Below are positions 1-24,354 of a stretch of DNA of 64,000 bases, piece after piece. The translations under genes were made by a program, and so were the position numbers. Source of the stretch: a virus. Taxonomy: Duplodnaviria > Caudoviricetes. The DNA is taken from the IMG/VR virus record IMGVR_UViG_3300031992_000019; one strand, written 5' to 3'. A model generated the notes under the pieces. The model saw nothing but the letters and a program-made list of their open reading frames with translations, made no database searches and had not been told where the DNA came from. Each line of letters starts with the position of its first letter. Positions within the stretch are counted from its first letter, which is position 1.

Positions 1-675
1 GGGTTATAAAGCAGCCGTACTTTCGTATGGTTGGATAGATATGGGAAGTGGTGTTCCCATCGGTGGTTGAATTGAGTACATTGGCGGCATCTGAATCGCC
101 CTACGAACATTTAACTCGGTTAGCCACTCTACAAGTTGGAGAAGTTCCTCCTTATATTGTGGGTTTTGGTCGGGAAAAGCCGCTTCTGCAACAAGTCTTT
201 CTATTTCGGCATCTATGGTTATCTTGTCTATCATAGCCGTAATTTTTTATTCGCGTTATTTAATACGGGTTATAGTTGTATTGTTAATTATACTATTTCT
301 CTAAAATATCGGTCACTTCTTCCGCTTGCGTCCTCACAGGGCATAGGGTCGTTAATTCCAACTTTTTCACAGATTTTCTGCAATGCGCAATAATCGCAAG
401 CGTCTGCACCATGCTTATCTGTGGCGAATTCAACCCTCTTCCCAAAGATTTCAATTTCGTTTGCCATAGTCGTATTGTTTATACTCGTTTTACATTGTTA
501 TCCTTAATCCATTTTTCAAGGGATTCATTTGTTCTCTTTCTGCTTTTGTAATCTGGACAATAACTATACGGCTCTGTGGATTTCATAAGCATATAGCAAT
601 ATCCGTCAAAATGCTGCCAAAAGCACCTTGTGCAATATCCGTGATTTGCCATAGCTTGCTGCTTTAGGGTGCTAA

Positions 676-7369: not shown

Positions 7370-8086
7370 CTAACAGAAACTTAAATATTGTTTGATGATT
7401 GGATATTTGATTTCCTTGATTCTCTCGAAGTCGCAGTTATAGGTCTTGTTCACGAAACCAACCACATCCTCGGAGGGTATTCGCGTATCATAGTTGACAC
7501 TTCTCGCGAACAACTCGTAGTGTGGGATGTTCCTATAATCCTTTGTCGTCAGGGTCTTGTTTCTTTCCCTATCCTCCGCAACCTCCTTCTCCCTCTTCTC
7601 CAGAAGGGCGAGGTCTATTGATTGTGTTGGGAAATACTCCTCCCGATTCTTCAACTTGGTAAGTGAGAGGTGATATTTCTCACCAAAGATGTTCGCGAAG
7701 TCCATCTCTATGCCGCCATACGTGATATGCTCGTCCTCGTCATTCTCATCCTTTCCTCCAAGGGTGCAGAACACTACAAGGTCGCCCCTCTCGAATGATG
7801 AAACCAGAGATTTAATCCTCTTGTCGAGGCAGTTTCTCGCATAGACGTATTGGTCGAAGGTAAGGCAGCTATCCTTGGCATCCAAGTGGTCTTTGTCCTT
7901 CTTCACGCTACCCGTAAGGTAGATGTCCCCAAGATACCTATCCTTGACCTTGAAGAGTTCGGACTTTTCGGGTATCGTCATATACCTTGTGAGGTTCTCC
8001 GACTTGTAGCATCGTCCGAAGACATATAGCCAGAAGTCATCCTTGCACATCCTTTCAAACTCCGTGTTGTCTAAATATACCTTCAT
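7370..8086 (-). CDS. hypothetical protein
   Basis: 238-aa ORF. Confidence 0.75.
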   Translation of the reverse strand: MKVYLDNTEFERMCKDDFWLYVFGRCYKSENLTRYMTIPEKSELFKVKDRYLGDIYLTGSVKKDKDHLDAKDSCLTFDQYVYARNCLDKRIKSLVSSFERGDLVVFCTLGGKDENDEDEHITYGGIEMDFANIFGEKYHLSLTKLKNREEYFPTQSIDLALLEKREKEVAEDRERNKTLTTKDYRNIPHYELFARSVNYDTRIPSEDVVGFVNKTYNCDFERIKEIKYPIIKQYLSFC

Positions 8087-8223
8087 AGCAGTGTTTTGTT
8101 TTTAATCCCTCTCGCGTGTACGCATGAAGTTTAATATAATATATTATTTTTATAACGGGTTATTCTCTTGCTCAACAACAACAACATTAGTTTTACGATG
8201 ACAGAAAAAACAAAGACAAAAAA

Positions 8224-9168
8224 TCAATGACCATACGCTCCCGTCAACTGGTTTAACCTCCGCTGCGCGCTCCAATTCGGGTTCATTGCCAATTCGTGTA
8301 TATAGGCATCGACCTTGCCCTGCTCAAATTCTTCTACAACCTTTTCCTCGGACTTGCCATTGCGACCTCTTGCGTTGTAGAGACAATAACGGAACAGACC
8401 CTTTTCGGAATCCGACAAAGAATACTCGTTGCAGTCGCGGGTAAAACCATTAACCCCAATGATGATGAGAGCCGACACCGCCATCTTGCCCACGTTACGC
8501 GCTTGCAAGACAAGTTTATGGGAAATGACCTTGACCCTTCCATCCTTCTTGAGCCTATTCAAGTACCTTATCAATGTCCTTTCGCTGATTCCCACCTTCT
8601 TTGCCAATACCTCTTGTGACAATGCTGGCTTGCACATCAAGCATGAGTTTTCTTTATAACCCCTTCGGGTATTCTCTTGCTCAACAACATTAGTTGACTT
8701 GTTACGTGCCTCGTTGTCGTATGAGTTGATGACATTCTCAATGAGGAGTTCGCGCAGAACGACCTCGACTGCCTTGAGGGATTTACCCTCTATGCTTTCT
8801 CTCTTTACCTCAATTCTAAATGCTCCGTAGATAGCCTCATTCTTCCTATTGTATTGCTTGACTCTGTAAAGCCTTTTAAGTGACGATATTCGGATGTATT
8901 TCCTGCCATTAACCTCATAGAGCTTGGCAAGCATCCTTCCGTTCGGAATCCTAATACCCTTTTCAAGTGCGGATATAAGCTCCTTGGACTTGTAGTGGTT
9001 CACTCCAAAGTCCTTTCTAAATTTAGCCTCATTCTCAAAGAAATACACACTGCTCTCGTGCATACCCTTTGTCATAATGGCAAAGGATGCAATAGACCAC
9101 TGGAGAGGGTCATTCTTCGCCCACTCCAGAAAGTCCTTCGGAACAAATATGGATTCTCTTTGGTACAT
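8224..9168 (-). CDS. HTH DNA-binding protein (possible replication or regulatory protein)
   Basis: LSQEVLAKKVGISERTLIRYLNRLKKDG HTH. Start moved to MYQRES because the track start lies inside the tRNA-like RNA. Confidence 0.75.
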   Translation of the reverse strand: MYQRESIFVPKDFLEWAKNDPLQWSIASFAIMTKGMHESSVYFFENEAKFRKDFGVNHYKSKELISALEKGIRIPNGRMLAKLYEVNGRKYIRISSLKRLYRVKQYNRKNEAIYGAFRIEVKRESIEGKSLKAVEVVLRELLIENVINSYDNEARNKSTNVVEQENTRRGYKENSCLMCKPALSQEVLAKKVGISERTLIRYLNRLKKDGRVKVISHKLVLQARNVGKMAVSALIIIGVNGFTRDCNEYSLSDSEKGLFRYCLYNARGRNGKSEEKVVEEFEQGKVDAYIHELAMNPNWSAQRRLNQLTGAYGH

Positions 9169-9180
9169 AATACTTGTTTT

Positions 9181-9309
9181 TGGTGAACGCAGGAGGACTC
9201 GAACCTCCAATCTTCGGAATTAGGGAAGGGGAATTTGGTCTAAAGAAAACTCATGCTTGATGAAGAGAAAATGCCTAACCCCGACACTCTACCATTGAGC
9301 TATACGTTC
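9181..9309 (-). ncRNA. tRNA-like RNA with greatly enlarged anticodon arm
   Basis: Acceptor stem GAACGTA/TGCGTTC+ACCA, D arm GCTC-AATGGTA-GAGT, T arm GGAGG-TTCGAGT-CCTCC. Anticodon stem extended (TCGGGGTTAGG/CCTAATTCCGA) around a ~47-nt loop. Confidence 0.8.
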
Positions 9310-9420
9310 TTGTTTGCGGTCTCGAAAAGGAGTCGAACCCCTACCTTCTGGATTTACACTCAAATGTTGCTTTCTTCTATAACGATTGAGTCGGAAAATT
9401 GTTTACAAAACTTGAAAATT

Positions 9421-9819
9421 TTATATCCTCACGTCAATGTCCTTGTATCTTGCGAGTTTTCGGCAGCACTCCTTGTAGCCTTTGATGAGAGCCTTGTATT
9501 CATCTTTGGAGGGTTCTTCGCCCATCTCGTAGTGCAGCCGTTCAAGTTCATCGAACTCCGCTTGACCGATTTTCCTGATGAGGTTCTTCTTGTAGCCTAT
9601 GAGGTGGTTGGGGTCATTGCAGTTGCATATCGCACATTCCGCGTTGCAGTTCCTCTCGTCCCATCGTGTCGATAGGTTGTACCGCGAGAAGTAGTGACCG
9701 CACTGCATCCTCTCAAAGGGGAGGAGTTTCCCGCAAGATATACATCTGGTCATACCACCGACCTCGGCATCCCTCAATCGTATGTATAGGGAGTACACCC
9801 TATCCAGTTCTTTTCTCAT
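9421..9819 (-). CDS. NinG/Rap-family recombination endonuclease
   Basis: YIRLRD...CISCG...CGHY.SR....RWDERNCNAEC..CN. Start at MRKELD just after tRNA-Gly. Confidence 0.9.
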   Translation of the reverse strand: MRKELDRVYSLYIRLRDAEVGGMTRCISCGKLLPFERMQCGHYFSRYNLSTRWDERNCNAECAICNCNDPNHLIGYKKNLIRKIGQAEFDELERLHYEMGEEPSKDEYKALIKGYKECCRKLARYKDIDVRI

Positions 9820-9820
9820 G

Positions 9821-9892
9821 AGCGAGATACGGGACTCGAACCCGCAACCCTCGGTATGGGAAACCAATGCGCTACCATTGCGCCAATCTCGC
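9821..9892 (-). tRNA. tRNA-Gly(CCC)
   Basis: cloverleaf GCGAGAT/ATCTCGC, anticodon loop TT-CCC-AT, T loop TTCGAGT, U discriminator. Confidence 0.9.
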
Positions 9893-9980
9893 GTAACACC
9901 CCGAAGGGCGACCCTGCCTCACGGAGGGATTTCTCACTAACCTGTGTGTATTATGACTCAAATTATGCGAAAAAACATTG

Positions 9981-10053
9981 TGACCGCATCGGGACTCGAA
10001 CCCGAATCTAATCCTTAGGAGGGATTTATTACTATCCTTTGAACTATGCAGCC
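9981..10053 (-). tRNA. tRNA-Arg(CCT)
   Basis: GGCTGCA/TGCGGTC acceptor, anticodon loop CT-CCT-AA, T loop TTCGAGT. Confidence 0.85.
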
Positions 10054-10230
10054 TTCAATTTCTGGGTGCAAAGATAGTAATAAAAATCGTATGTTCCAAC
10101 ACTTGTATCGTATTATTTTCGTGTCATTAAGATTATTTAACACTTTTTATTTGGTCAATCCAATAAAAGGTCGTATCTTTGCAGCGTCAATAAAGACAAG
10201 ACCCACGGCGGGGTAGCCGAGTTTCATTAA

Positions 10231-24089: not shown

Positions 24090-24354
24090 AGTTGTGTTTT
24101 GTTTTTAAGTTGCACCCTACCTGTTTAGGGTGCATTGTTATTTACTGCGGTTTATTCTTCTCGATTTTCGCCTCTGCTTGTTCTTGGCAAGTTTAGGCGA
24201 TTTCTCTTTCTTTGGCGCACCTTTGAGTTTTCGGTCAATATAACCTTTGCCAGCCTCAAGAGCTGCTGCCAATGTTATTGCGTTTAATTTATCCATGCTC
24301 ATAATATCTTCTATTTAGGGTGCGGTTTGTATTACTAATTGGGTTATAAAGCGG

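Follow-up and report, generated by a model that had tools for sequence, protein, structure and literature searches.

A conserved, apparently non-decoding tRNA-scaffold RNA with a lineage-specific antisense match to the downstream gene in a probable rumen Bacteroidales phage

In the complete virus record IMGVR_UViG_3300031992_000019 (Caudoviricetes; genome of 165,288 bp), a tRNA-shaped gene carries, in place of its anticodon loop, a long insert, part of which is perfectly complementary to the mRNA of the same-strand gene that follows. The locus raises the question of whether this RNA decodes codons at all and, if it does not, whether the complementary stretch regulates the neighbouring gene or arose in some other way. 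We analysed a stretch of 64,000 nucleotides from this genome, hereafter the window, together with related loci from public assemblies. Judged from its sequence and that of its relatives, the locus appears to hold a conserved, non-decoding tRNA-scaffold RNA with an antisense match that is specific to one lineage. The host group is probably the rumen Bacteroidales, with which a DUF4494 domain in a neighbouring gene and a Bacteroidetes-type −7 box agree, and the runs in which this stretch occurs are gut metagenomes of sheep and cattle. The phage reads well in the standard genetic code, with a coding density of 89%; stop-codon recoding through a suppressor tRNA was rejected on account of this density and because no stop reassignment helps selectively.

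The minus-strand gene order was read with tRNA callers, Rfam, Pfam and phrog (Table 1). The promoter-like box TATCTTTG upstream of the tRNA cluster is kept in two relatives described below (contigs L003 and L010), and the same motif recurs elsewhere in the genome, making it the likely promoter of an operon. Comparing the window with L003 by eye, we found no conserved Bacteroidetes-type promoter box between the RNA gene and its putative target, and a sigma-70 scan, which does not cover the Bacteroidetes type, returned no promoter on that strand in the same interval. Since a promoter-like box stands only upstream of the tRNA cluster, the RNA gene and the downstream gene, which encodes the protein P0001, are probably co-transcribed with the cluster.

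Table 1. Coordinates of the features discussed in the text (positions in the window).
Feature	Position	Strand	Basis or remark
Bacteroidetes-type −7 box (TATCTTTG)	10069..10076	−	Read in the sequence; upstream of the tRNA cluster
tRNA-Arg(CCT), first gene of the cluster	9980..10053	−	
tRNA-Gly(CCC), same cluster	9820..9892	−	
NinG/Rap-like gene, directly upstream	9421..9819	−	Pfam PF05766, phrog_5034
Degenerate tRNA remnant, directly upstream of the tRNA-scaffold gene	9320..9386	−	14.6 bits
tRNA-scaffold RNA gene	9181..9309	−	Rfam RF00005, ARAGORN with introns, fold, conservation
Extended anticodon stem, 5′ strand	9274..9284	−	Fold; pairing kept in L003 and L010 via G-U to G-C changes
49-nt loop, largely unpaired	9225..9273	−	Centroid fold leaves the loop open
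Loop segment complementary to the downstream mRNA	9241..9262	−	22 nt
Extended anticodon stem, 3′ strand	9214..9224	−	Contains the would-be anticodon (CCT here; CTT in relatives)
Downstream gene P0001, 314 aa	8224..9168	−	
Direct-repeat copy within the linker, 11 nt from the target	8667..8695	−	Partner at 8158-8192
7-nt stretch able to pair with loop bases 9225-9231	8660..8666	−	RNAduplex; this window only
Target segment in the mRNA	8635..8656	−	(Y)KENSCLM, linker just before the winged HTH
Direct-repeat copy, intergenic after the P0001 gene	8158..8192	−	Conserved in L003
238-aa gene, then DUF4494 gene, 3′ of the P0001 gene		−	DUF4494 by Pfam

The Rfam tRNA model RF00005 matches positions 9184-9309 on the minus strand with 53.3 bits (cut-off 29); the acceptor, D and T arms are all intact and aligned, and 61 nt replace the 7-nt anticodon loop. 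Default ARAGORN makes no call at this gene. With introns allowed, it calls tRNA-Arg(CCT) and places an insert of 52 nt at 33/34. The MFE and centroid folds agree on a cloverleaf in which an 11-bp anticodon stem, including two G-U pairs, closes a 49-nt loop. The original prediction, made from the letters of the window, had described intact acceptor, D and T arms and an 11-bp stem closing a loop of ~47 nt. Arms and stem were borne out by the 53.3-bit match and the cloverleaf fold, with a slightly larger loop. It had also listed an encoded CCA, which is indeed present in the window but in no relative: these read ACA at the same spot, and the other tRNA genes of the phage also have no encoded CCA. 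Nor did the gene turn out to be a catalogued intron or RNA family, as ARAGORN and Rfam return a tRNA and no intron family; between positions 8000 and 11000 no Rfam family except tRNA matches at E ≤ 1, and ARAGORN calls no tmRNA in the window or the genome. When the scaffold was compared with phage tRNAs for a possible ancestor, identities ranged from 53 to 70% and none stood out.

Three features indicate that the tRNA-scaffold gene does not decode codons: a 7-nt loop is absent, the would-be anticodon varies between CCT and CTT, and the phage encodes no splicing endonuclease, RtcB or Rnl2. Specifically, for near-identical genes ARAGORN with introns allowed gives tRNA-Lys(CTT) in L003 and L010 and tRNA-Arg(CCT) in the window. 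The C/T difference falls in the extended stem, where it exchanges a G-C pair for a G-U pair and pairing is kept. We weighed against this the possibility of an intron-containing tRNA in which removal of 52 nt would give a working tRNA-Arg(CCU) or tRNA-Lys(CUU). A canonical 7-nt loop does appear once ARAGORN takes out the 52 nt at 33/34, and extra sequence in the anticodon loop is what this gene shares with intron-bearing tRNA genes of the group I and archaeal bulge-helix-bulge kinds. The resemblance does not extend to size, structure or enzymes, however. The insert is far smaller than a group I intron (~200 nt or more, with the Rfam Intron_gpI core), and no Rfam intron matches it; the 11-bp helix is continuous, with no bulge-helix-bulge of the archaeal type; and the host is bacterial, while the complete phage genome holds no tRNA-splicing endonuclease, RtcB or Rnl2 ligase (PF01974, PF01139, PF09414). 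In addition, the anticodon would change between near-identical relatives, and the phage already encodes a tRNA-Arg(CCT). Contigs from RNA libraries (two runs), in which rare forms are lost and which may stem from DNA, carry the unspliced form and no skipping joint. We therefore regard splicing to a functional tRNA as very improbable. A contig of RNA run X4, from one sample, ends at position 9177; being a contig end, it is not taken as the end of an RNA.

Could the gene instead be a decaying pseudo-tRNA, inactivated by an insertion and without function? Decay of tRNA genes does occur in this region, as the degenerate remnant directly upstream illustrates, but the arms of the scaffold are intact and its base pairs have been maintained through one-sided changes in three lineages. 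The 5′ 43 nt of the insert also show a single change across the window, L003 and L010, where ~7 would be expected at background divergence. These points make inactivation improbable, though less so than splicing. Within the insert, the 24-nt loop core has no change among the same three sequences, at a background identity of 88-94%. A recent recombination patch may be an alternative source of this conservation.

The segment of the loop and its target form an inverted repeat of 22 nt with 100% complementarity, exactly as the original prediction stated. The repeat occurs twice and no more in the window, and likewise in the 165,288-bp genome, even when 2-3 mismatches are allowed. No such match is expected from shuffled sequences (n = 100), and the whole genome contains just 5 exact inverted repeats of at least 22 nt. 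The complement is far beyond chance. Loop and target lie on the same strand, ~585 nt apart, and the predicted position of the target, just before the HTH of a same-strand gene, was likewise correct. Using RNAduplex, we obtained a duplex of 22 bp plus 7 bp at −43.8 kcal/mol, the best non-self site in the genome, over a background of −14.4 ± 4.6 kcal/mol; the additional 7-bp match just 5′ of the target arises from a cluster of six changes within the 3′ portion of the window's loop. The next sites, at about −35 kcal/mol, are interior-loop-rich noise, and a second genomic target was rejected on this ground. Similarity in the flanks of the 22-mer falls short of significance in the window (p ~0.12) and is marginal in L003 (p ~0.02). 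Neither the 21/22-mer nor the 5′ half of the scaffold is matched exactly in the genomes of IMG/VR or GTDB. JGI metagenomes gave five 19-mer matches, which lie in unrelated contexts with no tRNA and were set aside as chance hits.

P0001 consists of an N-terminal domain, a variable linker, a winged HTH (Pfam HTH_24, residues 177-214) and a C-terminal domain, of which Pfam and PDB sequence searches recognise the winged HTH alone. Its Atlas neighbours are winged-HTH proteins of phages and Bacteroidota, some with HTH_36 and a few with DnaD_N, which hints, as a lead only, at a replication organiser or a regulator. The target falls in the stretch of the protein that varies most, at insertions which P0001 and its close relative P0002 carry relative to homologues. 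It ends at an in-frame ATG that is absent in homologues. An internal promoter or start in the linker was considered and found unsupported, as no Bacteroidetes −33/−7 pair was visible by eye and the ATG is not conserved. The GGGTTATAAA motif occurs six times in the genome, in other orientations relative to genes. At the codon level, window and L003 differ by synonymous changes in 28 of the 314 codons; in the seven target codons 0.6 such changes would be expected and none is seen, so that the target copy carries no measurable extra constraint, the expected number being too low for statistical power. This, and the position of the target mid-gene in a variable linker and not at a conserved frame start, counts against a regulatory role.

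A search among 5.8 billion proteins returned a single close relative of P0001, the protein P0002, which is 96% identical and encoded on the 84-kb Logan contig L003. This contig carries the same tRNA-like gene, in which one-sided changes have preserved the pairing of the acceptor stem and the extended stem; its loop 22-mer is that of the window, and its target departs from the window's at a single edge base (21 nt exact; 23 of 24 positions). Two cattle-gut runs, X5 and X7, contain relatives that are ~95% identical. Among the differences listed for them, none falls within 8576-8656, and both have G at 8657. For these two runs the complement is deduced from the target side, the loop sequence not having been seen; if their loops are unchanged, the G at 8657 would extend the match to 24 nt. 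Because this base would lengthen the match, the ancestral repeat was probably 24 nt long, the window and L003 each having lost one edge pair by an ordinary codon change. The differences seen among the three target-bearing lineages are confined to one edge of the duplex, a pattern that weakly fits protection of its core.

An exhaustive profile-free search recovered distant homologues of P0001 at 22-40% identity. Among them, P0005 (31% identical to P0001) is encoded on contigs L010-L012 in the order tRNA-Arg, second tRNA, NinG, tRNA-like gene, P0005 gene; DUF4494 follows in L010 and L012, and the cut last gene of L011 occupies that position. The upstream DNA of these contigs is 88-89% identical to that of the window and L003, and their tRNA-like gene differs from that of L003 at only 2 of 128 positions, with an identical loop 22-mer. 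Homology to the window ends right after the 3′ end of the tRNA-like gene. Even with up to 5 substitutions permitted, these loci (up to 6.2 kb) gave no complement of the 22-mer; the longest stretch able to pair with the loop is 9 nt, which is chance level. The original prediction had looked to homologous loci for complementarity between loop and target and for co-variation of the two. The first is absent in L010, L011 and L012 despite the identical loop, and the second did not emerge, every target-bearing locus being a close relative. As these contigs keep the loop in front of a target-free, 31%-identical allele, the complement is, in the loci compared, confined to the lineage with the P0001 allele, and the RNA itself is not. 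On this comparison the loop is conserved with or without its target, and the RNA would be older than the neighbouring gene and conserved independently of it.

Further afield, the distant homologues on L008, L009, L025, L027 and L028 have no tRNA-like gene and no upstream complement, and they have their own Bacteroidetes promoters. In phages whose NinG is 63-69% identical to that of the window, the corresponding place holds a normal tRNA or is empty. P0001, NinG and the 238-aa neighbour had no hits when viral contigs were searched with them, and blastn against GenBank phages returned tRNA pieces only.

How might the RNA act on the gene that it matches? The tRNA genes, NinG and early genes would be transcribed as an operon, together with the scaffold RNA, from the promoter-like box near 10070. 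With acceptor, T and D arms intact, RNase P and the 3′ tRNA-processing enzymes would probably excise the scaffold RNA, which would then display its 49-nt single-stranded loop on the 11-bp stem. The loop would pair with mRNA from the same transcript, in the window as a perfect 22-bp duplex, and this pairing with the winged-HTH message would lead to cleavage by a double-strand RNase or to a block of ribosomes. The gene would thereby be turned down as infection proceeds, or in a lysogen. We put the probability that the scaffold RNA regulates the P0001 gene by pairing, as a cis-operon antisense RNA of the P1 C4 or P4 CI type, at about 0.4. This reading is favoured by a match that lies beyond chance, in an open loop, on the same strand and with a strong duplex, and it is weakened by a sister lineage that keeps the RNA without the target. 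Of the antisense carrier originally proposed, then, a conserved scaffold RNA that appears not to decode, on the same strand and with an open loop, stands; a complement in L010-L012 does not.

P4 CI RNA, from the satellite phage P4, is a small RNA that RNase P releases by acting on a tRNA-like feature of the transcript; it is encoded upstream of its target in the same operon and pairs through its loops with the downstream message. For C4, the account in PMC5320573, citing Citron & Schuster 1990 and Hartmann 1995, describes an RNA that RNase P cuts from the operon transcript and that pairs with a downstream target. The present locus resembles C4 (P1/P7) and P4 CI in having an RNA encoded upstream of its putative target, probably in the same operon; in C4 and CI the RNA pairs through loops and holds back a regulatory or replication gene. 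The differences are threefold. The carrier here is a complete tRNA cloverleaf, whereas C4 and CI are partial mimics; a single perfect 22-mer lies in a coding linker, in contrast to short loops over the ribosome-binding site; and a sister lineage here has the RNA without the target. The C4 family model does not match the locus, and neither does any non-tRNA Rfam family at E ≤ 1.

Nearly as likely as regulation through pairing is a local duplication, in which a piece of the loop of ~24 nt was copied in inverted orientation into a tolerant linker, during repair or template switching, and does no regulatory work there. The RNA would then serve some other purpose: it might be a decoy or mimic directed at a host factor that binds tRNA, or it might regulate another target. 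Conservation of the loop with or without the target accords with such an event, as does the placement of the target at the lineage-specific insertions of P0001 and P0002. A second rare repeat, a direct one, lies 11 nt away in the same linker: 20 nt are exact, about 29-45 nt match with gaps, and its partner is 509 nt off. Two rare repeats side by side in one linker suggest that the linker is a mutational patchwork of nearby sequences, or their source. The near-trichotomy of the three lineages does not decide the direction of copying between loop and linker. The perfect 22-24-mer, moreover, resembles a recent copy, evolved trans-acting RNA-target pairs usually being imperfect, and ordinary substitutions are eroding the target copy at its edge. 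Against a functionless copy, a perfect 22-bp match in an open loop should pair if one cell makes both RNAs, and a complete lack of effect would then call for special pleading; the repeat also persists in four sampled genomes at 6-10% divergence, with the differences seen all at one edge.

An exact inverted repeat also invites an explanation at the DNA level, namely an invertible segment of 584 bp flanked by 22-bp arms, or a pair of binding sites for a DNA-binding protein. With inversion, full-length and truncated versions of the gene would alternate. Bacteroidales invertons typically have arms of such length and spacing, and the likeness is plain: a few hundred bp lie between exact inverted repeats of ~20 bp, in a phage of the same hosts. 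Among the phage's genes is one for a tyrosine recombinase, and the gene at the arms encodes an HTH protein. Unlike in those invertons, however, the arms lie within two genes, so that inversion would destroy the tRNA-like gene and the reading frame. No internal promoter was seen: by eye, no Bacteroidetes-type box lies inside the segment, and the sigma-70 scan, which does not cover this type, found none either. No recombinase is adjacent, the phage's own being ~44 kb away, and the phage has no resolvase. Contigs of four runs, which drop rare variants, span both arms in the reference orientation only, with no strand-changing joints, so that the inverted form is not seen. In L010-L012, finally, only one arm is present. 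An inverton or paired protein sites thus seem a little less probable even than a pseudo-tRNA. Explanations that we did not consider share the remainder, which is small.

Regulation by pairing, our tentative reading, would gain interest from where it places this RNA among others. Phage tRNA clusters are known to contain non-decoding RNAs with tRNA features, such as the T4 species 1 and 2 RNAs (rnaC/rnaD) and the tRNA-like stable RNAs of T5. We know of no function for these RNAs and of no reported match between one of them and a neighbouring gene. The scaffold RNA is set beside them by description, as it too appears to be non-decoding and lies amid phage tRNA genes. A literature search on phage tRNA genes whose anticodon loops are naturally enlarged or interrupted brought up no description of such an RNA. 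RNA regulation in Bacteroidales phages is little known. The same design exists in man-made form. The engineered 'tRNA scaffold' of Ponchon and Dardel for recombinant RNA (PMC3753655) retains the acceptor, T and D arms and converts the anticodon arm into a stem bearing a foreign insert; in bacteria such chimeras undergo precise processing and are stable, being shielded from decay. The construct in PMC3753655 is artificial, whereas the phage element is natural and conserved.

If the pairing is used, the locus would be the first natural tRNA-cloverleaf carrier of an antisense guide known to us and a natural counterpart of the engineered scaffold, and it would extend RNase-P-dependent antisense control from P1 and P4 to Bacteroidales phages. 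Even as a by-product, the match would leave a clean, conserved case of the poorly understood non-decoding, tRNA-shaped phage RNAs, and its 22 nt give experiments an unusually direct way to probe the capabilities of such RNAs. A bolder version, which we consider unlikely, is that whole tRNA bodies serve in rumen Bacteroidales phages as natural carriers of exchangeable 'guide' loops, with the loop described here aimed at the phage's own early winged-HTH, replication-type gene as a self-timer or immunity RNA. It is an equally speculative part of that version that an exchange of either the loop or the allele of the gene would let sister phages escape or re-target, as the second scaffold copy of X5 and the loop of L018 might illustrate.

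These further elements differ from the scaffold of the window. A different tRNA scaffold (Rfam, 34.5 bits), whose perfect 9-bp stem closes a 24-nt loop, is present in related phages on contigs L018 and L019, and L022 has an enlarged-loop candidate called by ARAGORN only; none of these has a local target, which weighs against a regulatory use of the pairing. In run X5, a second, tandem scaffold copy stands at the place of the window's tRNA remnant. There, 21 other letters, which have no complement in the window's genome, take the place of the middle 62 nt, and by our reading this copy would form a 9-bp stem with a 12-nt loop.

Directly upstream of the tRNA-like gene lies a degenerate tRNA remnant whose T arm is well preserved (Rfam 14.6 bits, E 0.33). 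It is missing from L003 and L010, two contigs of related lineages carrying the tRNA-like gene, and from X7, a cattle-gut sequencing run holding a relative ~95% identical to the window; six different letters occupy that position. At the same position in X5, another such run, there is a second tandem tRNA-scaffold copy, differing in its 21-nt middle. A further tRNA-scaffold RNA is found in a related phage on contigs L018 and L019 (Rfam tRNA 34.5 bits), with the anticodon stem replaced by a perfect 9-bp stem closing a loop of 24 nt; a local search for a complement to this RNA found none.

Coordinates of the features described (window unless a contig is named)
Feature	Sequence	Position	Strand
tRNA remnant	window	9320-9386	-
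tRNA-scaffold RNA	L018	2969-3064	
tRNA-scaffold RNA	L019	302-397	
HNH_3-type gene and Hom_end_hint neighbour	L022	1271-2301	
HNH_3-type gene and Hom_end_hint neighbour	L023	1251-2156	
Additional 193-aa gene	L003	6082-6663	
Direct repeat, linker copy	window	8667-8695	
Direct repeat, intergenic copy	window	8158-8192	
TATCTTTGCA	window	10069-10076	
GGGTTATAAA	window	8653-8662	-
GGGTTATAAA, four further copies	window	1, 24341, 24788, 26467	+
Copy of the record's final 116 nt	window	1-116	
Recurrence of the record's opening	window	~447-1730	

The tRNA/NinG region of related phages is thus populated by mobile endonuclease elements: on contigs L022 and L023 an HNH_3-type gene abuts the NinG/Rap-like gene, and a neighbouring gene has a Hom_end_hint (intein) domain. 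L003 has an additional 193-aa gene, absent from the window, between the wHTH gene and a 238-aa gene, and at the same place X5 and X7 hold ~639 additional letters (joint 8087/8159).

Beside the antisense target we observed a direct repeat, exact over 20 nt and longer if gaps are allowed. One copy lies in the linker of the wHTH gene, 11 nt from the target, and the other in the intergenic region after that gene, where it contains a -33/-7-like pair preceding the next gene (TTTG, 21 nt, TAATGTTG); TAATGTTG has one mismatch to the Bacteroidetes -7 consensus.

The final 116 nt of the virus record are identical to the start of the window, and the record's opening 350 nt recur ~46 kb in; these repeats represent either repeated cassettes or an assembly feature of the record's ends.

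The Bacteroidetes-type -7 box TATCTTTGCA recurs at several sites in the genome and explains several of its longest exact repeats (e.g. window 49510/80422, 10174/40637 and 72214/73200); these sites are probably host-type promoters of the phage. A second motif, GGGTTATAAA, occurs six times in 165 kb against ~0.3 expected. One of the six runs across the antisense target's 5' edge. The remaining five all sit on the plus strand; four fall within the window, and the copy at 24341 lies just beyond the end of a minus-strand ORF.
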